From a virus: a stretch of 64,000 bases of DNA. The translations under genes and the position numbers were made by a program. The stretch is from IMG/VR virus record IMGVR_UViG_3300025276_000021; one strand, given 5' to 3'. The notes under the pieces were generated by a model. The model was not told the origin of the DNA, ran no database searches, and worked only from the letters and a program-made list of their open reading frames with translations. Shown piece after piece: positions 17,786 to 35,906 of the stretch (positions within the stretch are counted from its first letter, which is position 1; each line of letters starts with the position of its first letter).

Positions 17786-19001
17786 TTACTTTTTCTTTTA
17801 ATTCATTAATATCAGATTTTAAGTCTTTGATTGCTTCAATAATTAAACCCATCATGTTACCATAACGAACAGCTTTATATTCACCATCAAATTCATAAAC
17901 AACTTCTGGTAAAACAGATTCAACTTCATCTGCCATGACACCTGTCATTTTTTCTTCACGACCAATATAGTTAAATGTGTACCCAGAAAGAGTCATTACT
18001 TTGTCAATAGCATTGTCAATGACTTCTATATTTTCTTTGAGTTTTCTATCAGACGCACTATTGAACGCGGTAATATCACCATTAGATGTAATTGCACTAT
18101 CAGCATGTAATGTTGATGAGAGGGATAATGAAACACCATTATCACCTACGTCTGATCTTAAATATTTTGGATCAGTTAGAGTTGCAATCATTGTTGCAGA
18201 ATCTATTCCAGGAGGGGATCTTTCTATGATATAATCGCTATCAATTATAGCAACAACTCTACCGCCAGTAAAATAAAGATTTGTTCCTTCTGTTATAGCT
18301 GTAGTCGTTTGAGCAGGCATTGTAAAAGACATAATGCCAGTGCTGTTATCATAAGATAAACTACCAGTTGCGCTAATTGATGCTCTTGCCCTCGCTATAG
18401 TATGATAAAGATTAGTTGAACCTTCTGTAATTGTATCTGTATTGCCTTGTGTAAAAGATATAACACCAGTGCTGTTATTATAAAATAGACTGCCAGTTGC
18501 ACTAATTGCATTTTTAGCATCACTATCTGCCCTAGATGTTGTGTAATAGAGATTCGTACCCTCAACTAATTCGCCCGTGGACTCTACCACCGAGGGTGGA
18601 ACATAAGTGAACACTCCAGTGCCGCTATAACTTAAAGTGCTAGTAGGACCAGATGGTGCAGATTGAATTACAGAGATATCAGAAAATCTAGGGACATCTA
18701 AAATTCCATAACCATCCCTACTAGTCGGGGTAGTTGTTATAGACGAAAATGCTGGAGCTGTATTTGTTACAGATCCCACAGGCGAGCTATTGATTATATT
18801 AAAAATATACGAAGAGTCAACTAAAGCTGTAACCCCGGAGTCATTTAAAGCACCCACATTATTATAGAATGAGCTTAGTTCACCTAAGGCAACTCTCGCT
18901 GTTCCATGAGTTCCCACACTTACCCCACTCACAAGTACAAAATTTGAGTTTGAAGTTAAGTTTCCCGAAACTTCTGTTGGTAAATCGACTACTCTAACCA
19001 T
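17775..19001 (-). CDS. Tail fibre with C-terminal peptidase S74 intramolecular chaperone
   Basis: SDRKLKENI...GVMADEVESVLPEVV...VRYGNMMGLIIEAIKDL. EGxxNLYYT shaft repeats. Confidence 0.85.
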   Translation of the reverse strand: MVRVVDLPTEVSGNLTSNSNFVLVSGVSVGTHGTARVALGELSSFYNNVGALNDSGVTALVDSSYIFNIINSSPVGSVTNTAPAFSSITTTPTSRDGYGILDVPRFSDISVIQSAPSGPTSTLSYSGTGVFTYVPPSVVESTGELVEGTNLYYTTSRADSDAKNAISATGSLFYNNSTGVISFTQGNTDTITEGSTNLYHTIARARASISATGSLSYDNSTGIMSFTMPAQTTTAITEGTNLYFTGGRVVAIIDSDYIIERSPPGIDSATMIATLTDPKYLRSDVGDNGVSLSLSSTLHADSAITSNGDITAFNSASDRKLKENIEVIDNAIDKVMTLSGYTFNYIGREEKMTGVMADEVESVLPEVVYEFDGEYKAVRYGNMMGLIIEAIKDLKSDINELKEKVNGN

Positions 19002-19056: not shown

Positions 19057-21453
19057 TTAATCTCTTTCAATCTCGAAACTACCACTAATAGATACACCAC
19101 TTCCTAAAGTACAATCTTCTGTAGTTGTTTCTTTAGTAGCATGACTGTATGTTCCTCCTTGATATATTACTCTTGGAGTTGCACCATGCAGAGCTTCTAC
19201 ATAATAATTTGCTGTTGGGGTAATACTTTCTGTCATATTGTACATATCAGTTTGATTCTGTAGTGTTCCTAGCCAAGTTTTTACATCTGACCATGTCCAA
19301 TCTCTGTTTAATTCCAATATTGTAGCAATCAATCCTGTCGCTACAGGAGTTGCAGCACTAGTGCCGCTGAATCTTCCATCTCTACTTACCGCAGGCGAAC
19401 CAGTTTGTCCGTCACTCCAACTTGTACCACCACTTTTACTCGCATATGTGTTATCATATCTAGGGATATCAGTACCATAATATCCGGGAATTGCAGCCAA
19501 AGTTCCGTCAGCTGGTGCAAACAGGTCTATATTATTTCCCATATCGCTGTAATTTACTTTGCGCTCTTTTGTACCAGTAGCATACTGATCATCTAGACCG
19601 CCTACAATAATTACTGGACTTGTTCTATTTCCTGTCTGTACCTTTATAATACCCTGCATTGAGCTATGGGTGCCACAATTATAATAATACTGGTCACCAG
19701 TAAGAGTTGATTTCGTTCTCTGATTAGGTGTCCAACTACATGTACCGTACAGGGAGCCTTGTCCTGTTGCCGTGGGGTGATTTACTTGGTTTTGATGGCC
19801 AGTTCCACTATGATACTTGATATAAAAATTATTAGGGCTGGGGGCACTTACATTAAAATTTACAGTATCGCCTCGATTAATATAAACAGTAGGATTGGTT
19901 CCGCTTACAGATCCGTTTCTGTCTGTGCCATTTAATTGCCAAGTGTTACTGCTAACTGATACTGAAATATTAAATGTTTGTGGATCTCCCCAAGTTGATC
20001 CTGCCTGTTGTGGGAAACCTGGTCTGTTTATAGTTGGCATTGCAAGTGTGCCATTGGCTGTCACTTGACCGTCTCCAAAATGTCCTGAATTGGTGGAATG
20101 CCAATAGTTATCATAGTCTGGATGATCCCATTTGACTTGTTTTTGATTGCTATTTCCTGCGGCAACAGTTGTAATAACACCAGCATCTATCATTTCCTTT
20201 GCGCTAGTGACCATGGCACTATCGAAAAATTCACTTTTAATTCTACCTGAATCGCCGTAATTACCTATAAGGTTCATAAACGCTGGTGCGCCTGCTTTTG
20301 ATGTAAAGTATATTCCTGAAGATATTCTATGAAATGCGTATGCTGTAGTTGGATGCCACGCTCTATATCCCCAACTATTTGAAGATATTGTTGGATCTTT
20401 AGTTCCGTATTTTGGATTTATAGGTTTTGCTAGATGGAATATTTTTTGAATGTCCCATATTTTATCAATTCCTGCACTCCGAGAACTAAATGCGTCAAGG
20501 ACCCATTTGTTAGCATTATATGACCAGCCATGCGTTCTACCAAATAATTGACTTCCACACTGTGTACCATGTGTGGCATCATAGGGTAATGTGTTAAAAT
20601 CTCCTAGTGTATTCTCTCTTGTACAGAGACTAGTTATAGATACTGTTCCGTAACTAGCGAAGGCAGAACTTCTACTACCTGTACTACCCCACCAACTTAT
20701 AGCCGCAGCATTAGTTGGTACTGTAGTTCCGTCCCATCTGGTTTCTAGTCTAGTTCCTGGTGAAGCATTAAACCAATCTGGATCAATATAGTATGGACCA
20801 TCATGCACAAGAGATAATAAATCAGAAATGCCATCACCAGGCAATAAATTACCACCTACATAGTCTGTAGGCGACTCACCAGCTGGTCTATTATTGATAA
20901 ATTCTATATGTCCTGCCCATGTACCGTTATCTGCAACTACTATATCAACATCTTTTCCCGTGCCGTATTTTTCAATATTTGAGTTCGTAGTGGTCGTATC
21001 GCTTGTCCATATATCTCTTTTATTCTTAGGTCCATTTTCTCTTGTAGTTCTTAACAACTGGTATCCACATCTACGCAAATCCGCACTAGTAGGGCTTGAA
21101 GGATAGTCAGACGCACTTGAGAACCGATTCCTGTGTTTAACTGGCTCGTTATATCTCCACGTAGTTTCTATTGAACAATGTAATTCATCAGAAGGTGGCT
21201 GAGTAAACTCTTCCCTGTAGTTATCTGGGTTTTTGTGTATAAACGCAATCTGAGGATTTTGTTCTAACTCTGCAGCTTCTTCCTCACTTAACCAAAATAC
21301 ACCTCTTGTAGGGCTGTGTAGTATATCATCTGTTTGACTAACTGCTCTTGCTACATAAGTTGGATCATCAGCATCACGCAAACTAACATCTAATGCATCA
21401 TATTGTTCTTTTGTATGTGTACCTAATTGATAATGAAATTCTGACATAATCAA
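19057..21453 (-). CDS. Subtilisin-like (S8) serine protease with an inserted cupredoxin-like domain
   Basis: Catalytic motifs VDIVVADNG (Asp), HGTQCGS (His), AAGNS (oxyanion Asn) and SGTSAATP (Ser). Confidence 0.85.
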   Translation of the reverse strand: MIMSEFHYQLGTHTKEQYDALDVSLRDADDPTYVARAVSQTDDILHSPTRGVFWLSEEEAAELEQNPQIAFIHKNPDNYREEFTQPPSDELHCSIETTWRYNEPVKHRNRFSSASDYPSSPTSADLRRCGYQLLRTTRENGPKNKRDIWTSDTTTTNSNIEKYGTGKDVDIVVADNGTWAGHIEFINNRPAGESPTDYVGGNLLPGDGISDLLSLVHDGPYYIDPDWFNASPGTRLETRWDGTTVPTNAAAISWWGSTGSRSSAFASYGTVSITSLCTRENTLGDFNTLPYDATHGTQCGSQLFGRTHGWSYNANKWVLDAFSSRSAGIDKIWDIQKIFHLAKPINPKYGTKDPTISSNSWGYRAWHPTTAYAFHRISSGIYFTSKAGAPAFMNLIGNYGDSGRIKSEFFDSAMVTSAKEMIDAGVITTVAAGNSNQKQVKWDHPDYDNYWHSTNSGHFGDGQVTANGTLAMPTINRPGFPQQAGSTWGDPQTFNISVSVSSNTWQLNGTDRNGSVSGTNPTVYINRGDTVNFNVSAPSPNNFYIKYHSGTGHQNQVNHPTATGQGSLYGTCSWTPNQRTKSTLTGDQYYYNCGTHSSMQGIIKVQTGNRTSPVIIVGGLDDQYATGTKERKVNYSDMGNNIDLFAPADGTLAAIPGYYGTDIPRYDNTYASKSGGTSWSDGQTGSPAVSRDGRFSGTSAATPVATGLIATILELNRDWTWSDVKTWLGTLQNQTDMYNMTESITPTANYYVEALHGATPRVIYQGGTYSHATKETTTEDCTLGSGVSISGSFEIERD

Positions 21454-23359: not shown

Positions 23360-25138
23360 TCATTTGCCGTGTACGTGATTTTTTGAACGCGGAAAAACTC
23401 CACCCGATACAGGTCTGTTTGCATAAACCCAGTTTGCTTTTGAGGGAAAGGCAATATCTTCTGTCGGTCTCTGATTGAACCATCGCAATATTAAATTTTT
23501 AGCGCCTTGCAAACTGCTCCGGTCATTAGGATCATCTGCGCCAGTGTCGTGCATCAAGTCGGATTCACCATATTCATTTAACCAAACTCTTGCTTCTGCA
23601 CAAGTCATATTTGGCCAGCTTTCAGCAAGACATGCCAACACACCGCAAACTTGAGGTGCTGCCATACTGGTACCGTTCATTTTAGTCATAAAATAACTAC
23701 TATTTCTTGGATCAGCTCCACCGGCTGAGCCATAAGTGTTAGAAGTAACTGAACCCTGAATATGCATACCCGCCGCAAATACATCTACTCTGTTGCCGAT
23801 ATTACTAAACCAACTCTGACCTTCATCTGTATCTGTTGACATTGCTCCAACTACAATAGGACTGTTGACTCCTTCACTAAACGGTTGACCACCACCTCTA
23901 TGAGAATGTAGCGCATATGCAGTTCCACTTATAGTAAATGTTGCAGTGTTATTATAATCTTGATCTGTAGAATCCACAATTTTCCAGCTTTGATTATCCG
24001 AGGAATTTGTCACAACAATACCAGCTTCTATCGCATCTTCCAGATCTGCAATACTTGCCGCACTCGAATAAGGTATTCTCAAAGCAGGGCTGCCGCCTGT
24101 TCGATGAACGCCATCTGGATAATACTGGGTAGGTACACCACGCTGGGCAAGACCAAGGGCGGTAAAACCTGTGCCAGACGTAACAGTACCTCTATAGTTC
24201 ATTGAAGTAATTGGTCCGACATTGCCGGAATCTATAGAAAAAGCGGAATTGAAACTACAATTAATAACTGTAGGATTTTTTCTGCCAGTTGCAGCATTGA
24301 TAGGCTTTTGAGTATGCCACACCCTTAAGTAGTCCCACATAAAAGATGAAATTGAACCAGAACCTGTGGTGGGATTTCCTGCAGTGCCGTCATTGGTAGC
24401 AATGCTAAATGGAGAGATATTATAGATATTTGCGTCTCTGGCCCAGCCTTGTGTATTACCAGCGACTGTAGATCCTACATGACAGCCATGATTGTTATTT
24501 GATGTATAAGTGGCAGTTACATAAGAACCGTTATCAGAATATGGATATGATGTACCAAAAGAGCCACCAGGATGAGTACCATGATTAAACCAATTCTCTT
24601 GTATAACACGACTGCCGCCAGTTCCGTCTGCATTTACAGCAAATTCGGGGTGTGCAGGATCAATGTGTCCATCTGCGATAACTACATCAACATTCTTGCC
24701 TGAGGCAGTTACCGTCAAATCTGCAGTTATCGATCTTGTGTCGCTTGGCTCTCCACCCCAAGTATTAATCTGCGCACCAGAAGCATGTCTTAATAATCCC
24801 CAATTTCTATGAGTAGATACATGAGTAACAGCGAAACCGTTTGCTGCGCTCCAACCTGTCTTATGATAGTTTTGGTTAGTCGTAGCCCATCCGCTAGGTT
24901 GTATCGACATTTCGTTAAGTTCTCTTAATGTTACATCCCAAACTCGTTCATCTTGTTTCAATGAATCTACTTCGGCATCGTCAAGCATGTAATGAGTATT
25001 ACGACTTATTTCCCGTCGATGTTCGACACCTACAGCTCTATCTGGAATATATAAATTTCCACCCGGCGTTTCCATATCTTCATAAAAAGTTTCCAAATCT
25101 TCTTTTCTATAAAGAGTAATTACCCATTCCCTAGTCAT
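23360..25138 (-). CDS. Subtilisin-like (S8) serine protease
   Basis: VDVVIADG, HGCHVGST, VDVFAAG and NGTSMAAPQVCG motifs. Confidence 0.88.
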   Translation of the reverse strand: MTREWVITLYRKEDLETFYEDMETPGGNLYIPDRAVGVEHRREISRNTHYMLDDAEVDSLKQDERVWDVTLRELNEMSIQPSGWATTNQNYHKTGWSAANGFAVTHVSTHRNWGLLRHASGAQINTWGGEPSDTRSITADLTVTASGKNVDVVIADGHIDPAHPEFAVNADGTGGSRVIQENWFNHGTHPGGSFGTSYPYSDNGSYVTATYTSNNNHGCHVGSTVAGNTQGWARDANIYNISPFSIATNDGTAGNPTTGSGSISSFMWDYLRVWHTQKPINAATGRKNPTVINCSFNSAFSIDSGNVGPITSMNYRGTVTSGTGFTALGLAQRGVPTQYYPDGVHRTGGSPALRIPYSSAASIADLEDAIEAGIVVTNSSDNQSWKIVDSTDQDYNNTATFTISGTAYALHSHRGGGQPFSEGVNSPIVVGAMSTDTDEGQSWFSNIGNRVDVFAAGMHIQGSVTSNTYGSAGGADPRNSSYFMTKMNGTSMAAPQVCGVLACLAESWPNMTCAEARVWLNEYGESDLMHDTGADDPNDRSSLQGAKNLILRWFNQRPTEDIAFPSKANWVYANRPVSGGVFPRSKNHVHGK

Positions 25139-25142
25139 ATCT

Positions 25143-26513
25143 CTACACCTCTAGTGGTAGATATTCTAAATCTACCGTAATAGTATTAGAGCCGCTCGTA
25201 GGAAGATTTTTGATTGCCATATAAATTGTTGTCTGAGAACCTTCGTTCCAAGCAGGTACTGCAGGTGCAAAATTAATATAGCCACTTGCTCCACCAGCAC
25301 TTGTTGGGTGCAAGATTTCTGCAATAACGCCTGAATTTGGCGCAGGATCAGTCAACTGTCCTCTAGAAGCATCAGCGGTTCTTGCAGCGCTGGATGTATA
25401 AATTCTTAGCCATGAAGTTGCAGATACTTGCGCCCGCAAGAGCATATATGCTTTAGGTGCACTCGTTATTTCAATGTTTAGGTTGGCACCGCTGGCAATT
25501 GAACCTGTTGTAATTGATGAAGTTGTTCTAGTACCCCCAGCACCACCACCACCGCCGCCGCCTGCTGCAGAAACAAGCTTAGTTACATTATATGGAGAAA
25601 CTAAAGTTTCTAATGTACTAGTTCCTGTTGCCCATACAGATGAATCTTGAATTGTTAATCTGCCGATATTAACTGCGCTATCACCAGCTAAGATTTTTGT
25701 TACATTAGTACTATCAAGAATATTTAAATTTGCGCCGCCAGAATCAATATGCCCTATTTTTGCCCATGCGGATCCAGAATCGCCTACATCATTTCGAATT
25801 TGTAAAAGATTTTTTGCATCGTCATACCAGAAAGTTCCGTTACTAAATGCAAGTGGAGCAGTAGAATCGACATAAATTTTGGGCAAGGTTAAACTCAGAA
25901 GTCCTTGTTCGTCTTGCAATTGACTTATATCTGTTGGTATAGGAACGTTGGTCTTGATCACCCCTGTCAGTTGCGAATATGCAATATTTGTACTGCCGCT
26001 TAAAGCACTCCTTGCCAATGAGTCTGTATAATATATGTTTGAAGTACCTTCAGGAACATCGTCAGAGACAAATCCTACTTGTGAATCTGCTAGTTGTCCA
26101 TTTAAATTTTGAATATGTGGAATACGTGCCTTGTTGAATACGCCACTAGTCGTTTTATTTGCTGAAAGGTTTGGTATTCTAGCCACAGGAAAAACACCGC
26201 TCGTAATAGCAGCGGTTGATAGTGGACCTAAATCTGATTGAGAAATTGTATTACAATTAAATTGCCAAGCACCGCTGTTAGAATCATATACAAGTGTTGT
26301 ATGACTTCCTGTGCCACCTGAAGCAAGAGTTTGTAATGACCTTATTGTAGATGTAGTCACTTGTGGAGCAATTTCATTTATAGCAGAAACGATATCAGAT
26401 TTGTTTGTAGTAAGCAATTGATCTGGCTCACCAACGTATGCGGACATAGAGTTGGTAGCTTGGCGCCAAGTTTCAATAGTATCTGTAAGATTAACTGAGA
26501 TTTTTCTTGTCAT
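25143..26513 (-). CDS. Tail fibre/virion protein, paralogue of 34719-35906
   Basis: N-terminal VNLTDTIETWRQATN...DIVSAINEI and 18-aa RIPxLxxxKxTSGVF repeats. Confidence 0.7.
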   Translation of the reverse strand: MTRKISVNLTDTIETWRQATNSMSAYVGEPDQLLTTNKSDIVSAINEIAPQVTTSTIRSLQTLASGGTGSHTTLVYDSNSGAWQFNCNTISQSDLGPLSTAAITSGVFPVARIPNLSANKTTSGVFNKARIPHIQNLNGQLADSQVGFVSDDVPEGTSNIYYTDSLARSALSGSTNIAYSQLTGVIKTNVPIPTDISQLQDEQGLLSLTLPKIYVDSTAPLAFSNGTFWYDDAKNLLQIRNDVGDSGSAWAKIGHIDSGGANLNILDSTNVTKILAGDSAVNIGRLTIQDSSVWATGTSTLETLVSPYNVTKLVSAAGGGGGGGAGGTRTTSSITTGSIASGANLNIEITSAPKAYMLLRAQVSATSWLRIYTSSAARTADASRGQLTDPAPNSGVIAEILHPTSAGGASGYINFAPAVPAWNEGSQTTIYMAIKNLPTSGSNTITVDLEYLPLEV

Positions 26514-26544: not shown

Positions 26545-26552
26545 TATTTATA
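26545..26552 (-). promoter_or_regulatory. T4-type late promoter TATAAATA restarting structural transcription after the radical SAM operon
   Basis: Exact motif overlapping the stop codon of the last cluster gene, about 32 nt upstream of 26513. Confidence 0.75.
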
Positions 26553-26955
26553 TCTTTTCTAGTGCCATTTTAAACTCGTCCTCATAATATTTTCTCACAT
26601 CTGGGACCATTCCAGTCATTTTTAGTGGAAATGTTATTTGCTTTATAATATTTTCGTATGTCTTTATGTCTAAACTATACTGTACAAAATGGGGATCATT
26701 ATCAGCTAATAGGTATTTATCATCTAATAACTCAAAGAAATTTTCATTAAAATCTTCAGATAGCCAAGACGCATAGCAGATCGCAACAAAATACGATTTT
26801 GCTGGATATACCCATTCGTCAATGTGTTCATTAAAATGCTTGACTGCCCATTTAACTGTATCGTCTGTCCAAGTAATATCTACTCTATTCAAATCATCTG
26901 TATGATGCTTATTAAGAAGATGATAAACTTGACTCGCTATTTTCCAATCTTCCAT
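26548..26955 (-). CDS. Hypothetical protein, last gene of the radical SAM cluster
   Basis: ORF track 26548-27009. The MEDWK start at 26955 was chosen to minimise overlap. Aromatic and acidic, with a YPAKSY motif. Confidence 0.7.
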   Translation of the reverse strand: MEDWKIASQVYHLLNKHHTDDLNRVDITWTDDTVKWAVKHFNEHIDEWVYPAKSYFVAICYASWLSEDFNENFFELLDDKYLLADNDPHFVQYSLDIKTYENIIKQITFPLKMTGMVPDVRKYYEDEFKMALEKI

Positions 26956-27838
26956 ACCAGTCCAATAATCCTTTATATCCGTTACAGCCATTATCCAAAT
27001 CCTTAACATATCTGTAATGTTCAGTTAAGCAGTTTCCAAAATATTCGCACGATGTACAGATTGGACTCATAGTTGCCTTTTCTTTTTTTGTCCAATCAAT
27101 ATAGTCTTCCCAACTATCTAACTCAAGAAAATATTCCCTATCTGCCTCATCAAATTCGAGTACACCAAATTTACCGTTTGGAGTAATGTATATATGATCG
27201 TCTGAGAATGCATTATATTTTTTATTATATGAATCTTCTATTCTATCCCAATTTATAAATTGAAACTTCATATGTTCTTCTAACTCTAACCATTTTATAA
27301 CAAAGTTCTCAAAATCTTTATGCGTCACAGTATGGGCGTTAGCTTGATTGATTGAATATGGTTTAATTTCAACAGATTTTATAGAAGAACATAGATTCAA
27401 CATATTGATCATTTCCATAACGTCTTTCTTTAGCACTTTTTCAGTAGCTAAAATTAGTACAGCTATTGGCCTAGTGCTTAACATCATATTTTGAAAAACT
27501 AGATCAGCTTTTTCTCTTGCTTCAAAATCATAAGATACTGCAAGATAAACGTCACTGTCTAAGAAACCTGGGTGCATCATAGAGTAATTTGTGTTGATAT
27601 AAATAGTACCAGAATAGTGCTTTTTAATAATTTCTTTAACTCCATAGAAATAAGATTTTTTCATTGCTCCAATTTCGCCACCATATAAATCAATGTGTTC
27701 AATGTTCTGTACTTGAGACAACAATTCGTCTAGTTTATTCAACGAAATCTGTTTCTGGTTACCTAATTCTTCAGGTGTTAGATAGCAAAAGTCGCATCTA
27801 AAGTTGCAGAAGTATGTTGGATTTACTGATACAATCAT
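26912..27838 (-). CDS. Radical SAM enzyme with C-terminal Cys cluster (rSAM 4)
   Basis: CNFRCDFC (CxxxCxxC), YGGE motif and C-terminal CTSCEYFGNC...C. Confidence 0.9.
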   Translation of the reverse strand: MIVSVNPTYFCNFRCDFCYLTPEELGNQKQISLNKLDELLSQVQNIEHIDLYGGEIGAMKKSYFYGVKEIIKKHYSGTIYINTNYSMMHPGFLDSDVYLAVSYDFEAREKADLVFQNMMLSTRPIAVLILATEKVLKKDVMEMINMLNLCSSIKSVEIKPYSINQANAHTVTHKDFENFVIKWLELEEHMKFQFINWDRIEDSYNKKYNAFSDDHIYITPNGKFGVLEFDEADREYFLELDSWEDYIDWTKKEKATMSPICTSCEYFGNCLTEHYRYVKDLDNGCNGYKGLLDWYGRLENSESSLSSS

Positions 27839-28446
27839 CGTATGTTAACAAGTTCTATGTCCATAGTAATTGTAAGTCTTTCATCATTACCGAAGTATGG
27901 AGTTACCTCATGCCAAACATGGGCAGGTATAATTACTATAGAATTTTTTTCTGTTTGTATTTCGTGTTGCGGATTTGTTCTGGCTCGCACTGTATTATTA
28001 AAAGAAGGATCGTGCAAAATTAGCTTGCCTCCATGCATATCATTATCTACAGAATCTAAGTAAAATACTGCAACCAATGCGTTACCTCTATGACAATGAA
28101 TTTGTTTATAGTCGCCCCTTTTCATAAACGGCATCTTGCCCATAGTTACTTGCATAGCATCATATACTTCCTCAAGTTCAGCACTCGGCTCATATTCTTG
28201 GAGAAGTTCTAAGAAAGAGACTGCAAAAAAATTATACAGTCTAGTCATAAAAGGATAAGTTTTTAGATTGAAATCTGAGAACACGGGAACATTCTCTAAT
28301 TCTCCAGCTTCCCTAAAACTTATTTTATTTTCAGCCATATATTGCATCATAAGAGCCTGACAAAAGGCTTTCAAAGATTCATTTTCATCATCTGTAAAAT
28401 CTATCTTCGATCTAAATATTTTTGTTGGAAATATAGTTTCAATCAT
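27835..28446 (-). CDS. Putative Fe(II)/2-oxoglutarate oxygenase (TIGR02466-like)
   Basis: IHCH, LVAVFYL, GKLILHDP and IIPAHVWHEVTP...R motifs of the DSBH fold. The MIETIFPT start is inferred. Confidence 0.8.
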   Translation of the reverse strand: MIETIFPTKIFRSKIDFTDDENESLKAFCQALMMQYMAENKISFREAGELENVPVFSDFNLKTYPFMTRLYNFFAVSFLELLQEYEPSAELEEVYDAMQVTMGKMPFMKRGDYKQIHCHRGNALVAVFYLDSVDNDMHGGKLILHDPSFNNTVRARTNPQHEIQTEKNSIVIIPAHVWHEVTPYFGNDERLTITMDIELVNIR

Positions 28447-29476
28447 AATATTCTCTTTCATATGGACTCACTTTAGCGTCAAGCCTATTTAGAGCAATAA
28501 TATCGCTTGCCATTGATTTCATGTGTTGACAATGATCTTCAACCATGTTATATTCTTTTAAGTCTTTTATAGTTTTTGAACACCCATTACATATCTCAAA
28601 CATAGGACAAGAAAAACACGCTTTTTTTAAACTCATTAAATTTATATCATTCTTTAATGGAGTTGTAAAGCCACCTTTCATTTCATAATCGAAATCAATA
28701 GCTTTGTCTAAATCGTCACCAAAAGCGCCACAAGAGTAGTAGTCACCTTCCGGCTGTATCGTGCGAATATGACTATCACAATCTCTGGCCTGCGGGCAGA
28801 TCGTTACGCCGCCGCGTAATCGTTTCAACATCTGTTGAGTGTTATGTTCCCAGTCAGATAATCCAGCTTTCCAAATTTCGATATATCTTTCATAAATCTT
28901 AGATAGTCGATATGGCGCTGATTGTGACCCTGAAGCCATAGCATAATTCACTTTGCAAACTACGTCCATTTTCTTTGCTAATTCTACGGTCTTGACTGCT
29001 GTATGTTCGTTTTCTTCAACAATTACTGCAATAAATGACGGTCTATATCCAACATGCTCTAACATTGCATCCGAACATTTCCAGAAATCTTCCTCTGTAA
29101 ACTCACTATAATCGCCTTTAAGTCTACCGCCGCCATATTGAAAAGATGTTGAAACACCAACTCTACGATGATTAAATAATTCTTTCCATTTCATCGGTTT
29201 CATCAAGAACGGATACAAATTAGATGTAAGTGATATCGTTGCCGGCATGTCATACTTATCAAGAAATTCTATGATTTTCCAATAGTAGTTAGGACGCATC
29301 ATAAGAGGATCGCCGCCATTAACAATGATTGTTTTTGTATCTGGGAATCTATGCAAAAACTTAAAAATCTTATTCAAATCAAGTATAGCCGTATTATCAT
29401 CTACGGTAATTTTAGATGAAGAACAAAAAGAACATTTAAAATTACAAAGTTCTGTTGGCTTGAGGATTAAGTCCAT
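28439..29476 (-). CDS. Radical SAM/SPASM enzyme (rSAM 3)
   Basis: KPTELCNFKCSFC, NGGDP, CPQARDC...YYSCG...CFSCPMFEICNGC. Confidence 0.92.
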   Translation of the reverse strand: MDLILKPTELCNFKCSFCSSSKITVDDNTAILDLNKIFKFLHRFPDTKTIIVNGGDPLMMRPNYYWKIIEFLDKYDMPATISLTSNLYPFLMKPMKWKELFNHRRVGVSTSFQYGGGRLKGDYSEFTEEDFWKCSDAMLEHVGYRPSFIAVIVEENEHTAVKTVELAKKMDVVCKVNYAMASGSQSAPYRLSKIYERYIEIWKAGLSDWEHNTQQMLKRLRGGVTICPQARDCDSHIRTIQPEGDYYSCGAFGDDLDKAIDFDYEMKGGFTTPLKNDINLMSLKKACFSCPMFEICNGCSKTIKDLKEYNMVEDHCQHMKSMASDIIALNRLDAKVSPYEREYYD

Positions 29477-30009
29477 GGAGAATTTTTAATGTTAAAGCCA
29501 AAATTCATAGTAATTCTTTCCACGCAGGGCGCTCGAAAATGTTCGACCCTATGTTCAAATTTTAAATCTTGACTTGCTAATATAACATCGTATTTTCTTG
29601 GCATGTGAAACGCTGTAATTCTTTTGTTTTCTTCCATATTTCTAAACATGATTTCTCCACCGTTATTAGGGTCCATGTCTGTAAAGTATAATAGAAAAAA
29701 TACATTAGCTCCTTCTAGTAGATCGTTATGCCAGTTACAAGAGGACTGCTCGGTGCCATTCCAAATAGAAGAATAGACTATTTTTCTTGCGTTCTCACTG
29801 CTATCATATTCTTGCAAGTATGTGTCGTAAAGTAGATTTGCAGTTTTAATCATTTTCTGTCGCATGCCTTGTAAGTAATAATTCCATGCGACACTAAAAG
29901 TTTTTTTGTCGCCATATCTCATATTAAACCATTTGAGTTTCGGAATAGTATCCTCAACATGGACAAACATATCTGATCTATTACTTAAAGTATATCCTTC
30001 ATCTCTCAT
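29467..30009 (-). CDS. Fe(II)/2OG-dependent oxygenase (prolyl-hydroxylase-like)
   Basis: WHND (HxD), FLLYF, GGEIMF, distal EHRV and the 2OG-binding Arg in ERITMNF. Confidence 0.8.
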   Translation of the reverse strand: MRDEGYTLSNRSDMFVHVEDTIPKLKWFNMRYGDKKTFSVAWNYYLQGMRQKMIKTANLLYDTYLQEYDSSENARKIVYSSIWNGTEQSSCNWHNDLLEGANVFFLLYFTDMDPNNGGEIMFRNMEENKRITAFHMPRKYDVILASQDLKFEHRVEHFRAPCVERITMNFGFNIKNSPWT

Positions 30010-30544
30010 TCGCTTCCCTCACCCAGTAATATTCGTTTCTCTCAAAACCCATTCGTTTCATTAGTCTGCAATCATAAGGACTATGTGGTATTCTGTAATA
30101 GTTCATAGTTGAGTATATATATTCAAGCATTAGACCCGAAGGACAAATTATTTTTTTGTTGCCTAACAATTTTATTATATCTTGCCACTGTTGCTTCAAA
30201 AATTGTTGAGCTTCACTTTTAGATTTTTTATTCATATAACCTACATTTCCAATTCTACCTATTATCACTTCATTTTTAAAAATATGTGCCATGCATATTG
30301 CCTTTTCGAGTTTTTTATCACTATCGCAATGAGGCATTGTAGGTTCACTTTTTTTAGAAATCATACAATCTTCGTATATCTCAGGATCACTTTCTTTTGT
30401 GCCATACCAAATAAAAAAGTGTGCTTGTCTAGGAGAAATTCTAACCACAAACGGATGCTGTATGGGTAAAATATCTAATTTAACATCAATGTAATTAGGC
30501 AGATCAATATCAAGAGATTGCGCTGGCTCTTTGTAATCGTACAT
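29999..30544 (-). CDS. Hypothetical protein in the radical SAM cluster
   Basis: ORF track 29999-30583. The MYDYK start at 30544 is inferred. It overlaps both neighbours. Confidence 0.7.
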   Translation of the reverse strand: MYDYKEPAQSLDIDLPNYIDVKLDILPIQHPFVVRISPRQAHFFIWYGTKESDPEIYEDCMISKKSEPTMPHCDSDKKLEKAICMAHIFKNEVIIGRIGNVGYMNKKSKSEAQQFLKQQWQDIIKLLGNKKIICPSGLMLEYIYSTMNYYRIPHSPYDCRLMKRMGFERNEYYWVREANER

Positions 30545-31565
30545 TGTCGATATATCTGTGCGTAATTTTGTAGACACATTCATCTAAAACTTCCTCTGCG
30601 TGTTTATAGTCATGCGACATAAAACAGCCTAGAGTACATCTTTGAAAATACTCACATGTAGAACAGTTATATTTTTCTACAAATGCCTTTTCTATAGGAG
30701 TATTATCCATAGGTTGTATATCTGTTTTATACATTGCTTTATCATCAGGCTCTTGAACTAAGTTTCCACATAGACACATAGTTCCATCTTCCAACACAAG
30801 TTTTGATGATCTGCAACTAATGCAGTTTTTTTCATTTTCAATCCAAGAACGAATAGGATCAATTTTAGGGTAGTTATCTATAAAGTGTTTGAATATATTC
30901 AGCATGTCTTGGTCTGATGGTGCGCTTCTTTTCGCTTGACAATCTGGCATATAATAGTCTGCGTATAGATAAATGCCATCGTCATATAGTTGACGTAAAA
31001 CTCCCTCTGTCTCTTTTAACCAAAATTTTATATTCGGCCTAGTGAGCAAAATACCAATACCATCTAACTCATCTTTAAAGTATTTGATATTTTCTAAGAA
31101 TATTGCTAAATTCGGTTTATTGAATCTGCCAGCAGGGTCGTATGAAGTAACAAGTTTACTTTTTATGCCATGAGAACGACAATATGAAAGCAAATCATTA
31201 ATTTGGTCTCTTTTACTTACCACTAAATTAGTGACCCAATTAATTCTTGTTTTTTTATTATATTTTTTTCCTAATTCTCCAATACCTTTGGCGAGATCCT
31301 TATAATCAGAGAATAGAGATGAATTGAATATCTCATCTGCAAAAATTTCTCCACCCATGATATTAAATACAACATTGATTCTATTTTCAGTTTTTAGAAA
31401 ATCTTCTATGGGAACAAGTTTATCTAATACAGTATCAATTCCTACAATGTTATCGTGATTTTGCCAGCAGAATGGACAAGATAGATTGCAAAATTCGAAT
31501 AGATGTATAGTGTATTCTTGCTGAGAGTCTCGCTTATCTCTTAATATAAAGTCACTCAGTTCCAT
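30510..31565 (-). CDS. Radical SAM enzyme with SPASM-like Cys cluster (rSAM 2)
   Basis: CNLSCPFC, MGGE, CISCR...CLCG...CSTCEYFQRCTLGC. Confidence 0.9.
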   Translation of the reverse strand: MELSDFILRDKRDSQQEYTIHLFEFCNLSCPFCWQNHDNIVGIDTVLDKLVPIEDFLKTENRINVVFNIMGGEIFADEIFNSSLFSDYKDLAKGIGELGKKYNKKTRINWVTNLVVSKRDQINDLLSYCRSHGIKSKLVTSYDPAGRFNKPNLAIFLENIKYFKDELDGIGILLTRPNIKFWLKETEGVLRQLYDDGIYLYADYYMPDCQAKRSAPSDQDMLNIFKHFIDNYPKIDPIRSWIENEKNCISCRSSKLVLEDGTMCLCGNLVQEPDDKAMYKTDIQPMDNTPIEKAFVEKYNCSTCEYFQRCTLGCFMSHDYKHAEEVLDECVYKITHRYIDNVRLQRASAIS

Positions 31566-32226
31566 TTAATGTGTCCGCTGAAATACCCCAAGTTAGTATG
31601 AACATGGGATTGTTTTCGTGCGCCCAGAAACTATACATGCCTTTTCCTCCAAACATATAGTCGTTAAAGTATTTTGAATAATATTTTAGATTATCAGTTT
31701 CTACAGAATTGTAATAGTAAAAAAATCTTTTGTTTTTGAGGAGACTGACGAAATTTATCCCTTTAATATCATCTGTAGGATCTTCAGGGTGATCAGTAAC
31801 AAATTTTTTCAAGTCATCGTCCTGTATGATATACATATTATATAAAGTTAGAGAATCTAGTTTAGACGTAAAATTTTTCAATTCTTCCCGATGATCTTCA
31901 ATAAACTTTGCAATACAAGGATAACATTGATCGACAATAACTGGAAGCTTTTTGTATATCAATAAAATGTCAATTAATACATTTTCCAAAACATCTATAT
32001 TTAATATCTGAGTAAATTTCAAATAGTGAGATGCCAATTCAAATAAATCGCTTTCTCCTATTTTAATATCGCAAGGTATTTCTAAATTGCTAAGGTATAC
32101 AAGTAAACTTTCGCCTTGCAATTTTGAATTTTCGTAGTCAATTAAAAATTTAGTTTCCTTGTCTGTAAAATATTTTTTTAAATCTTCAATACCCAAAGGG
32201 GCTGTTACCATAATAATTTCGCTCAT
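31552..32226 (-). CDS. Hypothetical protein directly downstream of the putative substrate gene
   Basis: The likely true start is MSEIIM at 32226, with an AGGAGA RBS. The longer track start overlaps the substrate gene. Confidence 0.75.
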   Translation of the reverse strand: MSEIIMVTAPLGIEDLKKYFTDKETKFLIDYENSKLQGESLLVYLSNLEIPCDIKIGESDLFELASHYLKFTQILNIDVLENVLIDILLIYKKLPVIVDQCYPCIAKFIEDHREELKNFTSKLDSLTLYNMYIIQDDDLKKFVTDHPEDPTDDIKGINFVSLLKNKRFFYYYNSVETDNLKYYSKYFNDYMFGGKGMYSFWAHENNPMFILTWGISADTLNGTE

Positions 32227-32233
32227 AATATAA

Positions 32234-33061
32234 TTATCTCCTACCTCTTGCCGAGTGACATGACGAGTGGCATGATGAATGACACACACTCTCACTAATG
32301 CTTATTCCACTTCCTAAATTAGCTACACTAAACCATGCATCATAAAAATTCTGAAAAAGTTCTTCTAATTTTTCGTCTGTCAGTAAATCGTTTTGTGCAA
32401 TTGGATTTGCAACATCAGAAGAATCGATTTCAAAACCATATTTATGATGTAAGATTGCAAAACCACTTGCTGTGACTGATGTATTTACACGCGCCGCACG
32501 GCGTAATTCTGTACTATATTTAATAGTTGCAATAGCGCAGTAATGTTGCAAAAATTCATGTGTTAAAGGAGAACCATCATCATCCACTGTTGGACCATAT
32601 ACGTTATGAGTAACTTTAAATGCTTCCCTAGCCACATCTGAGATAAAAACAACATCGCCTGTTCTTGCGCTGTTTGCGTCTGTAGTACATGCTATTTGCC
32701 AATCGCAAGCAAAATTTCTATTTAATAGTGCGGCTGCGGTCGCTGCTGGGCTTTTCGCTGGAAGAGAGATATTGCCGCCAGGGCCTTGAACAATTCTTGT
32801 AAAATTGATTTTTCTAACCCGTGTATATTGATTAACATCTTTCAGTAAAGCATTATAGATATCTTGAGCAGTTATTGGAGAATCTTTCAGATCTGGTATA
32901 GATGTTATTCCGGTAGTCGTACTACCATACAAGGATGGCAATAAGGTAGGTGCAGGTGATGTATTTTCTCCGTAGACGATATGATTATTTATTCTGTCTG
33001 TAACAAATTCTTTATATTTTGTTAGTGTCGGATTTTCTGTTGCTGGGTTACTGATTGCCAT
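32234..33061 (-). CDS. Putative precursor/substrate protein with a C-terminal (CHSS)-repeat core
   Basis: Ends in VCHSSCHSSCHSARGRR. It has a strong AGGAGA RBS, sits among the rSAM genes and has no enzyme motifs. Confidence 0.7.
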   Translation of the reverse strand: MAISNPATENPTLTKYKEFVTDRINNHIVYGENTSPAPTLLPSLYGSTTTGITSIPDLKDSPITAQDIYNALLKDVNQYTRVRKINFTRIVQGPGGNISLPAKSPAATAAALLNRNFACDWQIACTTDANSARTGDVVFISDVAREAFKVTHNVYGPTVDDDGSPLTHEFLQHYCAIATIKYSTELRRAARVNTSVTASGFAILHHKYGFEIDSSDVANPIAQNDLLTDEKLEELFQNFYDAWFSVANLGSGISISESVCHSSCHSSCHSARGRR

Positions 33062-33070
33062 TGTTATCTC

Positions 33071-34114
33071 CTAGACATTTTTTGCCAATTCCATCATTAA
33101 GCTCTTAGGAGCTCCACAAATATCTTTTTCCCATCCTAGCTGATGGCAATCGCCGCCACAAAATTTCGAAACTGGACAGGAATAGCATAATGGATTTCTC
33201 ATCTTTTCTTCAATAATATTTCGTATTCTCTTAGGACTATTTATAAGAGTTTGTATGCTATCATCTAAGTTACCGAATTGAAATTCTGGCGCACTGTTCG
33301 GACAACCACTAATTGTTCCATCACCATTTATAGTGAATAATTTTTCTTCACAATCACGACAAAACGTGCCGCATTTTGTCTGAGTCTTTTCAAACTTAGA
33401 ATACACATTTTCAAGAAAATCGTTGTCAAACCAATCTCTCGCACCATACTTTTCACTCTGCATATGCATTTTTAAAAAGTAGGCATCAAGTTCTTTGTTA
33501 GATGGAAATATCTCTGATGCATTTCTAGCATTGCCATTATTCGTAAGACGTTCTAAAGATACCTCTTGAACACCTAATCTACGGCACCATCTTAGCAATG
33601 TAATGGGATCTTTTTCAAGAGTATCTTTAGTCAAACTAATAAACAAACGTATAGTAATACCTTGACTTAATAATGTCTTGACATTTTTGTGCCATAAGCT
33701 ATATTGTTTATTATTATCGAAACGAATTTTACGATCCCAAGACGTGCCAAGTCTACTATTCAGAGGACCTTTGATAAAATCAATATGCTGATCTTTTAAT
33801 TTGAATACTAGATTAGTTGTTGCACCCCAACTCATACGATCCCAGAGACCATCACATGCATCATACACTTTACGCATTTGACCTACAGGTACAAGAAAAG
33901 GTTCACCTCCGTGAAACTCCATGTGTATGCTATCGTATGTCGCATCTCTTGGTCTATGAGATGCAAGGTGTGCTTCTTTTCTAAATCTATGAATCCAATC
34001 AATTATCTTATTTGGATTCCAATAGATTTTTGCACCATTACTACCGCTTGTAAAGCAGTGGGCACAATTCAGTTGACAGGTTTCTGTTGTTTTTAGGTAC
34101 ATTAACCAATTCAT
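33071..34114 (-). CDS. Radical SAM/SPASM peptide-maturase-like enzyme (rSAM 1)
   Basis: KTTETCQLNCAHC, FHGGEP, CGTFCRDC...GCPN...CYSCPVSKFCGGDC...C. Confidence 0.92.
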   Translation of the reverse strand: MNWLMYLKTTETCQLNCAHCFTSGSNGAKIYWNPNKIIDWIHRFRKEAHLASHRPRDATYDSIHMEFHGGEPFLVPVGQMRKVYDACDGLWDRMSWGATTNLVFKLKDQHIDFIKGPLNSRLGTSWDRKIRFDNNKQYSLWHKNVKTLLSQGITIRLFISLTKDTLEKDPITLLRWCRRLGVQEVSLERLTNNGNARNASEIFPSNKELDAYFLKMHMQSEKYGARDWFDNDFLENVYSKFEKTQTKCGTFCRDCEEKLFTINGDGTISGCPNSAPEFQFGNLDDSIQTLINSPKRIRNIIEEKMRNPLCYSCPVSKFCGGDCHQLGWEKDICGAPKSLMMELAKNV

Positions 34115-34587
34115 ATTATGTTTTCTATATAATCTTCAAGAGAAAAACTGAGAGTCAGGGCTTCACTATTATTAAATGCTTGGTGAAGAGTTCCTGAAGG
34201 AATATGAAAATACTCTCCTGAATTTATATCATGCATAATACCATTCATTTCAATAGTTTTAGTTCCCTCACAACAGTAAATAATAACATCAAAAGGATCT
34301 GTATGAGGCTTAAAAGAAGGAGATCCTTTTTTGGCGTAAAATAAATGACATGTTACTGGACCTTCTGTATGATTATATTTTTTAGCAAGAGCAAGACATT
34401 CCTCATTCATAGTCCGACTGAAATTTTCCATTCGTTCTATTTTTATAGTATTATTTGAATTTTTTAGAACTTCACTAAAGTTGTGTGCTTTGTGTTCTTT
34501 GCCATCAAAATCAACAAAAAATACAGCATTTTGGTCATATAAAAGTGAATTTTGTAATATAGATAAAACAGTAGTTAAAGTAAACAT
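34111..34587 (-). CDS. JmjC/cupin oxygenase (ribosomal-oxygenase YcfD/NO66-like cupin)
   Basis: CHLFY...SFKPHTDPFDVII...EGTK...IPSGTLHQA gives an HxD...H facial triad. Confidence 0.78.
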   Translation of the reverse strand: MFTLTTVLSILQNSLLYDQNAVFFVDFDGKEHKAHNFSEVLKNSNNTIKIERMENFSRTMNEECLALAKKYNHTEGPVTCHLFYAKKGSPSFKPHTDPFDVIIYCCEGTKTIEMNGIMHDINSGEYFHIPSGTLHQAFNNSEALTLSFSLEDYIENII

Positions 34588-34615: not shown

Positions 34616-34644
34616 ATTATATAGCATAAAAATATATTTGTCAA
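34616..34644 (-). promoter_or_regulatory. Perfect sigma70 consensus promoter driving the radical SAM operon
   Basis: TTGACA (34644-34639), 17-bp spacer, TATAAT (34621-34616). It lies about 29 nt upstream of the ATG at 34587. Confidence 0.85.
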
Positions 34645-34659
34645 CCATTATTTTAGGGG

Positions 34660-34687
34660 TTGACATTTCTGAAAATTCTGTTATAAT
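34660..34687 (+). promoter_or_regulatory. Divergent sigma70 consensus promoter (extended -10) pointing antisense into the structural operon
   Basis: TTGACA (34660-34665), 16-bp spacer, then TATAAT (34682-34687) preceded by TGn. Confidence 0.65.
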
Positions 34688-34718: not shown

Positions 34719-35906
34719 TTAAAGTTTCAATACACATTCTACAAGCTTTTCTTCAATAGAAGTATTTGTTTCTAAAGCAACTCCTACAATAGCAGCGCCA
34801 TCATACTCTTTAGATGCACAACCATTATTGTGAGCATACAAAGTTTCACCTTTACTTACAGCACCAACAACTCTTACTGGAACACGACCTTTTAGCGCAA
34901 GAGCCTGACCTTCTGTATCTGCATTCATAAGAAATGCGGGTTTTAATGATATCACTCCTATAGGCAATCCAAATACATTACACTCATCAGTTTCAGCCTC
35001 ATCAGTCACAGACACTTTCATAACCGTGCCAACAGGATATTCTATATCAGTTGTATATTTTTCTGCGAGGTCAGCGAAGTTTGCAGACGTAGCTAAACCG
35101 TAAAATGTGTGAGCATATACGCCCTTAAGTTTAGCACCTGTTGAACCAATATCGTATAGATTATCGTTAGCTGATTGAATAGTCATATCAGCATTTATTT
35201 CCATACTATCATTTAAGCTAACAGGTCCGTTGAAAATAACTGTACCCGTGTTTGTAAAAGTGTTAGTGTTGCTCATTGTTCTAGATGCTGTTACATTAGC
35301 GGCTACATTTGACCTTTCAAAAACAGAAGGAATAACATCAGCAGGAATGTCTGTACCATCATCTGTTATCATGCTAGAAGGAATATTGGGTATTCTATCG
35401 ATTAAAAATATTCCTGATGTTATCTTACTAGTTGCAAGTGATGGTATTCTATCCTCGTGAAATTGTCCCATTGTAGTTTGGTTAGCATTTAAGTATGGTA
35501 ATCTAGCTATAGCTATAGTTCCTGTAGTAATGTTAGACGCATCAAAATTAGGAAGTAAAGCAGGATTAAAAGTACCGGTTGTAATTTTACCTGCATCTAA
35601 TGCAGGAATATCGCCCTGAGTCAGCGCCCTTCTTACAAAAGTAAAGACGCCTGTTGCTGCAGAATAACTTAGTTCGCAATACGTGCCGCCGCCAGATGTT
35701 GTCGCACTTAATTGATTTTTAGCAAGTTGAAGCGTAGATCCGCCAATATTAGTTTTAGTTTCTATAGAATTTATAGCACTAACTATACTTGAACTATCCG
35801 CTGTAGTAAGTGCGTCCAAATCTCCAATATATGTTCCTAAAAGATTCGTCTTTTCTCGCCAACCGTTAACTGTGCTTGAGAGGTCTACATTTACAATTCT
35901 GGGCAT
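34719..35906 (-). CDS. Tail fibre/appendage with C-terminal peptidase G2-like autocleaving chaperone
   Basis: ADLAEKY...IGVIS.KPAFLMN...ALKGRVPVRVVG. 18-aa IPxLxxxKITTG repeats. N-terminal WREKTN motif. Confidence 0.75.
   Translation of the reverse strand: MPRIVNVDLSSTVNGWREKTNLLGTYIGDLDALTTADSSSIVSAINSIETKTNIGGSTLQLAKNQLSATTSGGGTYCELSYSAATGVFTFVRRALTQGDIPALDAGKITTGTFNPALLPNFDASNITTGTIAIARLPYLNANQTTMGQFHEDRIPSLATSKITSGIFLIDRIPNIPSSMITDDGTDIPADVIPSVFERSNVAANVTASRTMSNTNTFTNTGTVIFNGPVSLNDSMEINADMTIQSANDNLYDIGSTGAKLKGVYAHTFYGLATSANFADLAEKYTTDIEYPVGTVMKVSVTDEAETDECNVFGLPIGVISLKPAFLMNADTEGQALALKGRVPVRVVGAVSKGETLYAHNNGCASKEYDGAAIVGVALETNTSIEEKLVECVLKL

Follow-up and report, generated by a model that had tools for sequence, protein, structure and literature searches.

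Enzymes of the radical S-adenosylmethionine (SAM) type are known to mature secreted peptides, one bacterial defence effector and a small number of enzymes, but are not known to mature virus particles. Phage particles are known to be stabilised, for example by the isopeptide chainmail of the HK97 capsid or by His-coordinated metal in T4 fibres (gp37 and gp12), and a search of the literature gave no case of a virion protein with radical enzymes dedicated to it. In the bacterial HXS antiphage system, two radical-SAM enzymes, HxsB and HxsC, and the small protein HxsD mature HxsA (Li et al., Nat Commun 2026, PMC13128918), which carries five basic H-x-S repeats, acquires a +8 Da modification on SHRSS that requires His and Ser, binds DNA and blocks the entry of phage DNA (PMC13128918). 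We analysed a 64,000-nucleotide stretch of DNA from an uncultured marine T4-like phage (IMG/VR record IMGVR_UViG_3300025276_000021, hereafter the window), in which a cassette of 11 minus-strand open reading frames (ORFs) at 26548-34587 encodes four radical-SAM enzymes (rSAM1 to rSAM4), three Fe(II) oxygenases, three orphan proteins (u153, u194 and u247) and one 275-aa protein that ends in a Cys/His/Ser repeat (the tailed protein).

The HXS system is the closest known analogue of this cassette, which is not itself a member. The models for HxsB (TIGR03978) and HxsC (TIGR03977) scored 29.9 and 29.5 against cut-offs of 370 and 268, and those for HxsA (TIGR03979) and HxsD (TIGR03976) gave no match for the tailed protein, u247 or u153; one HXS trait, an effector with tandem His-Xaa-Ser repeats, is present as three H-x-S/N/A units in the tail. 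No paper found in our literature search accounts for the cassette: genome papers on phages Atu_ph07, FLC6, SURPRISE13, DT01, 332-Vera and AP-J-162 and a comparative survey of jumbo phages merely list the genes or leave them unmentioned, and one genome paper terms their number "highly unusual". The radical-SAM cluster of RP12/RP31 (PMC5468394) was considered and set aside as a different system, with a 537-aa radical-SAM enzyme and MgoB. We propose that the cassette is a self-contained maturation kit for one protein, and that its enzymes, which resemble the maturase anSME, probably modify the tail of a virion protein that contacts the host.

Conservation of the gene set and of the C-terminal tail

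An earlier reading made from the window sequence alone (the original prediction) had described 11 tightly packed minus-strand genes forming one dedicated pathway around a non-enzymatic protein with a terminal Cys/His/Ser repeat. The packing is as described, most of the ORFs overlapping or lying a few bases apart. We fetched 39 viral loci with rSAM4 and compared their synteny, and the tailed protein directly follows rSAM4 in 35 of the 35 loci where downstream DNA exists. This linkage and the recurrence of the genes across lineages bear out a functional unit, and clusters lacking the tailed protein, which had been named beforehand as grounds for abandoning the idea, were not encountered among these loci. 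The unit is smaller than predicted: eight genes form the core, in the order cupin, rSAM4, tailed protein, u247, rSAM3, rSAM2, rSAM1 and u153, and three are accessory.

This order is kept in the marine phage clade, in distant phage contigs of 240-276 kb where rSAM4 is only ~39% identical, and in the cultured Agrobacterium jumbo phage Atu_ph07 (gp172 to gp163), Ralstonia phage RSF1 (ORF069 to ORF085) and Pseudomonas phage DT01. The tailed protein corresponds to ORF071 in RSF1 and to PA10_00065 in DT01. The core was found in at least four unrelated phage lineages, including phiKZ-like Ralstonia/Burkholderia phages, and in bacterial chromosomes; the cultured phages that bear the kit are Atu_ph07, RSF1/RSL2, FLC6, SURPRISE13 and DT01. 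Searches by tblastn with rSAM2 and with rSAM4 returned an identical set of 15 phage records. The two 2-oxoglutarate (2OG) oxygenases and u194 are lineage-specific accessories: they are missing from the distant set (L028 to L040), and BLASTP found no counterparts of these three in Atu_ph07.

The tailed protein (32234-33061, minus strand) ends in CHSSCHSSCHSARGRR, the 16-residue tail (C-H-x-S)x3-R-G-R-R being coded at 32237-32284. The family comprises 810 representatives at 50% identity, 512 of them under 1e-10, using a profile of 27 members, with bodies of 95-453 aa (median 194) that fall to about 25-35% identity. Among 177 retrieved members, 165 carry the exact C-terminal pattern [VI]-C-H-x-S-C-H-x-[SN]-C-H-x-[SA]-R-[GS]-R-R with all C, H and R invariant; the third residue of the H-x-[S/N/A] units is Ser in 155, 130 and 137 of the 165 (units 1 to 3). 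Such conservation of the tail is far beyond chance, and no other conserved candidate substrate accompanies the kit.

The genes of the kit change at different rates. Median identity to the window within the marine clade is 85% for rSAM2, 83% for rSAM4 and 79% for rSAM1, against 48% for the cupin, 46% for u247, 34% for the tailed protein and 31% for rSAM3; in Atu_ph07, RSF1 and DT01, rSAM2 is still 53-61% identical. Slow rSAM1, rSAM2 and rSAM4 beside a diverging tailed-protein body fit enzymes that read an unchanging tail on a surface protein, and we infer that these slow enzymes act on the invariant tail of a fast-evolving, probably exposed protein.

An AlphaFold2 model of the tailed protein (predicted local distance difference test score, pLDDT, 75) comprises a small alpha/beta body, with a helical insert in long forms, and an exposed tail modelled at low confidence. 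Foldseek gave no match against the PDB and no solved fold was found, a BFVD search recovered only the protein's own uncharacterised family among viral models, and VIA Z scores were at most 6.0 and confined to the helical insert. The search of cultured phages by tblastn with the tailed protein gave nothing at 1e-3 because its body is too divergent, and the homologues were located by synteny instead.

Two loci differ in ways that we record here. In RSF1 (L041:7691-8980) an HNH endonuclease and two dihydrofolate reductase genes interrupt the cassette, in what looks like an insertion. A 208-kb contig filed under uncultured Gemella (L043:9716-10306) encodes the variant tail CHSSCHSNCHHR, which lacks R-x-R-R, and has radical-SAM genes on its flanks.

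A homologue of the tailed protein in virions and putative signals for expression

The virion evidence comes from a homologue in one cultured phage, Atu_ph07, the window phage being uncultured; at the DNA level Atu_ph07 is the nearest cultured relative of the window. Its virion proteins were identified by electrospray ionization tandem mass spectrometry by gel slice (PMC6102473, Table S5). The tailed-protein homologue is gp170, which ends in CHSSCHASCHNSRSRR. The computed mass of gp170 (31.89 kDa) equals the published one (31.9 kDa) and the masses of gp176 and gp177 agree as well, so the gene numbering matches. In the virion proteome, gp170 is represented by 8 unique peptides (35% coverage) in slices 1 to 9 with a peak in slice 1 (PMC6102473). 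Proteins peaking in slice 1 are otherwise of 75-139 kDa, apart from two others under 40 kDa with 1 and 2 peptides (PMC6102473), so that, of the proteins below 40 kDa that have their peak in this slice, gp170 alone is represented by more than 2 peptides (PMC6102473, Table S5). The neighbouring gp164-169, gp171 and gp172 were not detected in the same proteome (PMC6102473). The peptides and the top-slice peak thus indicate that the protein is particle-associated and migrates at several times its monomer mass, and that the enzymes are left behind.

A putative sigma-70-type promoter, TTGACA-17-TATAAT, lies just upstream of the cupin at 34616-34644 (minus strand) and matches the consensus at 12 of 12 positions; matches of 10-12 of 12 are found at the same position in five diverged relatives (L002, L005, L007, L009 and L022). 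The distant jumbo contigs have no sigma-70-type promoter at the cupin, as expected if they are phiKZ-like with their own polymerases, like their cultured relatives RSF1/RSL2. A T4-type late-promoter motif, TATAAATA, is found at 33238-33245 (minus strand), where it falls within the 3' end of rSAM4, 177 nt upstream of the tailed gene. In marine relatives the motif precedes this gene in 23 of 23 cases, at -34 (intergenic), -41, or -184/-185 (rSAM4 end), and in the window it also stands 26-32 nt ahead of three structural genes. These signals suggest that a host-type promoter probably drives the enzymes and that the substrate receives an additional late boost. Together with the Atu_ph07 proteome, the late motif favours the originally predicted virion product over a secreted antibiotic.

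Short contigs from two marine RNA libraries match exactly within the tailed gene, the cupin, u247, the 2OG oxygenase and the adjacent fibre genes; such libraries may contain DNA, so these contigs are evidence of neither transcription nor its timing. On the plus strand, 34660-34687 is another perfect sigma-70 consensus (TTGACA-16-TATAAT, with a TG extension), pointing in the opposite direction and antisense into the fibre gene 34719-35906, with no plus-strand ORF of note downstream.

Enzymes, partner proteins and genomic setting

All four radical-SAM enzymes are encoded on the minus strand: rSAM1 at 26912-27838 (308 aa), rSAM2 at 28439-29476 (345 aa), rSAM3 at 30510-31565 (351 aa) and rSAM4 at 33071-34114 (347 aa). 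Each was aligned with relatives from 9 to 13 other loci. A CxxxCxxC motif near the N-terminus and a set of C-terminal Cys are invariant in the alignments of all four families, and all four match phrog_1802 (E from 1e-30 to 3e-58). The SPASM pattern CX9-15GX4C ... CX2CX5CX2-3C ... C is kept by rSAM4, with its full 7 Cys, by rSAM2, the most conserved gene of the kit, and by rSAM3, the fastest-evolving of the four. Only CX2CX5CX3H...C, half of the pattern, is found in rSAM1, which falls outside the SPASM definition. Against PF04055 (cut-off 29.5), rSAM2 scored 33.3 bits and rSAM1 and rSAM3 just below the cut-off at 26.6-26.7; rSAM4 has no Pfam match, yet matches phrog_1802 at 2e-57 and the SPASM model. 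The latter (TIGR04085, cut-off 27) gave 35.5 bits for rSAM4 and 22.4 bits for rSAM2, with the pattern CX2CX5CX2C. The motifs and scores place all four in the radical-SAM superfamily and, rSAM1 excepted, in the SPASM subgroup. The predicted CxxxCxxC motifs with C-terminal Cys clusters thus held for all four enzymes, with a full SPASM pattern in three and half of one in rSAM1.

The four enzymes are distant paralogues, about 22-25% identical (hhalign probability 96-97%). The best full-length NCBIfam matches of rSAM4 were anSME (40 bits), then DynA, PapB and CbpB, all far under their cut-offs; those of rSAM2 were DynA (51 bits) and anSME (35 bits), both under cut-off. Profile searches of solved structures returned 8vpo, anSME, ChlB (9gm3) and CteB (5wgg) for rSAM4 and a full-length match to anSME (4k36) for rSAM2, as well as YydG and SuiB; single-sequence searches of the PDB were empty or generic. 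Matches to MoaA, NrdG and viperin were restricted to the N-terminal 80-100 residues common to all radical-SAM enzymes, and PADLOC likewise gave only N-terminal radical-SAM matches to viperin models. With family-level scores so far under the cut-offs, the enzymes are new families within the SPASM maturase group, and at ~345 aa they are too short for a leader-binding domain, as is anSME. The maturase affinity claimed in the original prediction therefore stands, the closest families being anSME, DynA, PapB, CteB and ChlB, and the clustering with nucleotide or cofactor enzymes that would have told against it did not appear in the hidden Markov model comparison.

Three oxygenases had been assigned to the pathway; all three are present, one of them as a candidate oxygenase, and only the cupin is core. 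This 158-aa JmjC-like Fe(II) oxygenase (34111-34587, minus strand; HxD...H) occurs in every lineage, always lies directly upstream of rSAM4 and scored over cut-off with both PF07883 (Cupin_2, 34.8 bits) and PF08007 (JmjC_2, 31.9 bits). The accessory 2OG-Fe(II) oxygenase at 27835-28461 (minus strand, 208 aa) varies in presence and matches PF13759 at 37.2 bits (cut-off 27) and phrog_81; by these scores it and the cupin belong to the 2OG-Fe(II) oxygenase and cupin superfamilies. The oxygenase-like accessory at 29467-30009 (minus strand, 180 aa; HxD...H) varies in copy number and scored 24.8 bits with PF13640, a little under the cut-off of 27.

The remaining three proteins are also encoded on the minus strand. 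The core protein u247 (31552-32295, probable start 32226; phrog_20767) always follows the tailed protein and has no Pfam or NCBIfam match; its fold is unmatched, the AlphaFold2 model (pLDDT 80) reaching a best structural Z of 4.4. The small core protein u153 (26548-27009; phrog_20737) is the last gene of the kit, is kept in all lineages and likewise has no Pfam or NCBIfam match. The orphan accessory u194 (29999-30583, 194 aa) was found only in the closest relative, L003, and has no family match in Pfam, phrog or NCBIfam searches. Searches of the ESM Atlas with u247 and with the tailed protein yielded nothing of use.

In the window, the cassette is surrounded by T4-type baseplate wedge proteins, fibres, DUF4815 proteins and one 5142-aa ORF, and the same DNA is present in many marine metagenomes. 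Fibre genes stand beside the kit in phages, with RSF1 and DT01 as exceptions. The two flanking fibre-like genes, 25143-26513 and 34719-35906 (both minus strand), have their first ~150 residues in common (34% identity) and diverge afterwards. Farther out are a 408-aa fibre with an S74 chaperone domain (17775-19001), two proteins with subtilase (Peptidase_S8) domains among the fibre genes (19057-21453 and 23360-25138, minus strand), and the 5142-aa ORF (390-15818, minus strand), which has TATAAATA 32 nt upstream. A giant virion protein, gp180, is near the cassette in Atu_ph07 too.

Among 185,579 species genomes, just 3 contain the tail pattern exactly. With the profile, the tailed family was found in 15 of 401 genomes of the phylum that includes a Bdellovibrionaceae metagenome-assembled genome (MAG); for the phylum to which a Rhodobacteraceae MAG belongs, 401 genomes were sampled and only that MAG matched. 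Contigs of 0.22-2.45 Mb contain four Bdellovibrio-like loci, in which rSAM1-4, u247 and u153 are present in a rearranged order. The cupin was seen by BLASTP in three of the four (G138, G277 and G447), a Cys-His tail ORF was read directly in G138, G370 and G447, and G277 has a family profile match. Housekeeping genes flank the kit in G138, G370 and G277 (PilQ/PilM, CarAB, PyrB, a DinG-like helicase, SMC and acyl-CoA dehydrogenase), and the flanks tested in G447 encode a GT8-type glycosyltransferase and a DctP-type solute-binding protein. At two of these loci (L052:3696-4742 and L056:15532-16725) the adjacent gene combines a prepilin N-terminal methylation motif with a Peptidase_S74-chaperone fibre, an unusual predicted pilin/phage-fibre hybrid that echoes the fibre neighbours in phages.

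Some bacterial loci hold additional genes. In one Bdellovibrio-like genome the gene of an additional 575-aa protein lies just upstream of the tailed one (L051:13153-14880), with weak, sub-cut-off matches to B12-binding (25.1 bits, cut-off 32.1) and radical-SAM (21 bits, cut-off 29.5) models. In the Rhodobacteraceae MAG, small tailed paralogues (129-144 aa) stand in tandem pairs, one pair on each of three contigs; on one of these contigs (L045:614-10030) a 2859-aa fibre-like protein precedes the tailed pair, and the remaining 1.8 kb of that contig contain no recognisable radical-SAM gene.

Proposed function, alternatives and comparison with known systems

In the mechanism that we propose, the four anSME-like enzymes, which have no leader-recognition domain, would work with the JmjC-like cupin and the two proteins of unmatched fold on the exposed, invariant (C-H-x-S)x3-R-x-R-R tail of the 275-aa protein. 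The most likely chemistry would be thioether and/or His-Ser carbon-carbon cross-links, or Cys oxidation, and the finished protein would be built into the phage particle, probably in the fibre or baseplate apparatus that contacts the host. The two 2OG oxygenases and u194 may be optional tailoring extras.

Several observations weigh against this proposal. Modification of the tail is proposed only, and metal binding alone might account for its three Cys and three His. The Atu_ph07 virions were purified with polyethylene glycol and not on a gradient, and the protein list includes cytoplasmic proteins, among them ribonucleotide reductase and a RecA-like protein (PMC6102473); the top-slice migration of gp170 could also reflect an SDS-resistant, heat-stable oligomer instead of a covalent link. 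The sigma-70 and late-promoter assignments are consensus or motif matches only, TATAAATA is not enriched across the window (10 found against 10.1 expected), and at -184 it falls in the coding sequence of a conserved enzyme. Finally, the predicted position inside a tail module holds for the window, with its fibre and baseplate neighbours, and does not generalise: fibre genes do not surround the kit in RSF1 or DT01.

Metal binding leads to the alternative that the tail is a metal or iron-sulfur site and that the radical-SAM enzymes act on the fibres, on another virion protein or on a small molecule. Three invariant Cys and three invariant His at i/i+4 spacing do resemble a metal site, and phage fibres such as those containing T4 gp37 and gp12 hold His-coordinated metals. 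A metal site would leave unexplained the near-invariant Ser/Asn and the R-x-R-R end, as well as the inseparability of the tailed protein from four maturase-type enzymes across phages and bacteria, and no alternative conserved substrate accompanies the kit; we consider this reading unlikely. The three H-x-S units, the basic R-x-R-R end, the several maturases and the location of the protein on the particle would also fit an offensive counterpart or decoy of the bacterial HXS defence, whose H-x-S-repeat effector binds incoming phage DNA in the periplasm. The basic repeats of HxsA, its +8 Da modification, its DNA binding and its block of entry (PMC13128918) accord with this, as does the presence of the kit in Bdellovibrio-like bacteria, whose relatives enter prey through the envelope. 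There is, however, no homology past the superfamily, the Hxs models being unmatched, and the repeat of the kit has an invariant Cys that is missing from the HxsA motif, so that we give this counterpart a slim chance.

That the tail is cut off and released as a bioactive peptide (antibiotic, metallophore or signal), with the body as leader, is what a ribosomally made and post-translationally modified peptide (RiPP) would predict. SPASM enzymes and oxygenases beside a Cys-rich C-terminal core are the usual RiPP layout, and one homologue weakly matches TIGR04135, a family of Cys-rich RiPPs, at 13.7 bits (cut-off 45; E 0.045). Against this, no PqqD/RRE, peptidase or transporter domain was found in the cassette or its conserved relatives, and the absence of an exporter or immunity gene noted in the original prediction extends to every lineage, as does that of a protease. 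Unlike in most RiPPs, where the reverse holds, the putative leader evolves fast and the putative core does not vary; the protein appears in virions, as gp170, at 35% coverage and high apparent mass; and a late-promoter motif precedes its gene. We judge a classical RiPP very improbable. The earlier label "RiPP-like" is a loose one, for a protein kept whole with no leader/core cleavage, protease or exporter. Equally remote is the idea that the enzymes make or modify a nucleotide, a DNA base or a cofactor, with the tailed protein an unrelated passenger. In published annotations, MoaA and "Fe-S oxidoreductase" do appear as names of some homologues, and the RSF1 cassette includes two dihydrofolate reductase genes; yet MoaA, NrdG and viperin match the N-terminus only whereas anSME, DynA and PapB match over the full length, the dihydrofolate reductase genes adjoin an HNH endonuclease and occur in that lineage only, and the tailed protein is present in every testable locus (35 of 35).

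The maturation kit proposed here stands out for its 810 clusters, its near-invariant 16-residue tail and the four dedicated radical-SAM enzymes that always come along. If the tail is modified, this would be a new post-translational chemistry and a new step in virion assembly, and would help to show how the cell envelope is engaged by large phages and by Bdellovibrio-like bacteria. Going further, we raise, as a possibility less likely than not, that a covalent cross-link or new residue built by radical-SAM enzymes on a host-contact tail is part of an attack apparatus common to large phages and Bdellovibrio-like bacteria, which would make it the first radical modification installed by enzymes on a virion protein and possibly the attacker-side counterpart of HXS. 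Cultured, tractable phages carry the kit, so the question is open to mass spectrometry on existing phages.

Compared with known enzymes, anSME (TIGR03942; PDB 4K36-4K39) is the closest by architecture, not by family. It shares the minimal SPASM form of ~350-390 aa with no leader-binding domain and a Cys or Ser in a short Arg-ended motif on a full-size protein, and among full-length matches of rSAM4 and rSAM2 it ranks first or nearly so. The kit differs in its scores (35-40 bits against a cut-off of 349, outside the family), in having no sulfatase, in its four paralogues against one enzyme, and in its motif, C-H-x-[SA]-R against C/S-x-P/A-x-R. QhpD (which acts on the gamma subunit of quinohemoprotein amine dehydrogenase), PapB and CteB are likewise SPASM enzymes, installing several Cys thioether cross-links in a Cys-rich protein or peptide; the kit matches them over the full length but weakly, all far under cut-off, their Asp/Glu/Thr acceptor motifs are absent here, and their products are an enzyme subunit or secreted peptides. 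In triceptide systems (XyeB, GrrM/OscB, FxsB and ChlB) an aromatic residue and the residue two positions on are joined, and the H-x-S units here could share such a carbon-carbon bond, as F-x-S does in Fxs, where the target is also C-terminal; ChlB (9gm3) was among the rSAM4 profile matches. However, the models for XyeB (TIGR04496), GrrM (TIGR04261) and FxsB (TIGR04269) scored 17-29 bits where the cut-offs are 310-450, and the targets of triceptide systems are small secreted peptides, modified via leader recognition. The CXXX-repeat system resembles it in the three CXXX units of the tail; its maturase model (TIGR04115) matched rSAM4 at 27.7 bits, over the N-terminal 60 residues only, against a cut-off of 350.

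HK97 and T4 also finish a virion protein after translation, and the high-mass migration of gp170 is reminiscent of cross-linked particle proteins, but stabilisation there is autocatalytic or simple metal binding. The resemblance to HXS is broader. In both systems a whole protein, not a small peptide, would be matured by more than one radical-SAM enzyme; the target would be a run of H-x-S units in a basic context, of which His and Ser are essential in HXS; small partner proteins with no matched fold stand beside the enzymes; and the biology lies around phage entry. The kit described here differs in comprising four enzymes and a cupin, and in a C-H-x-S unit with an invariant Cys, in three copies at the extreme C-terminus before an R-x-R-R end. 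The tailed protein has no signal peptide or peptidoglycan-binding domain and, judged from gp170, is found on the virus particle, and it is the attacker, not the defender, that encodes the kit.

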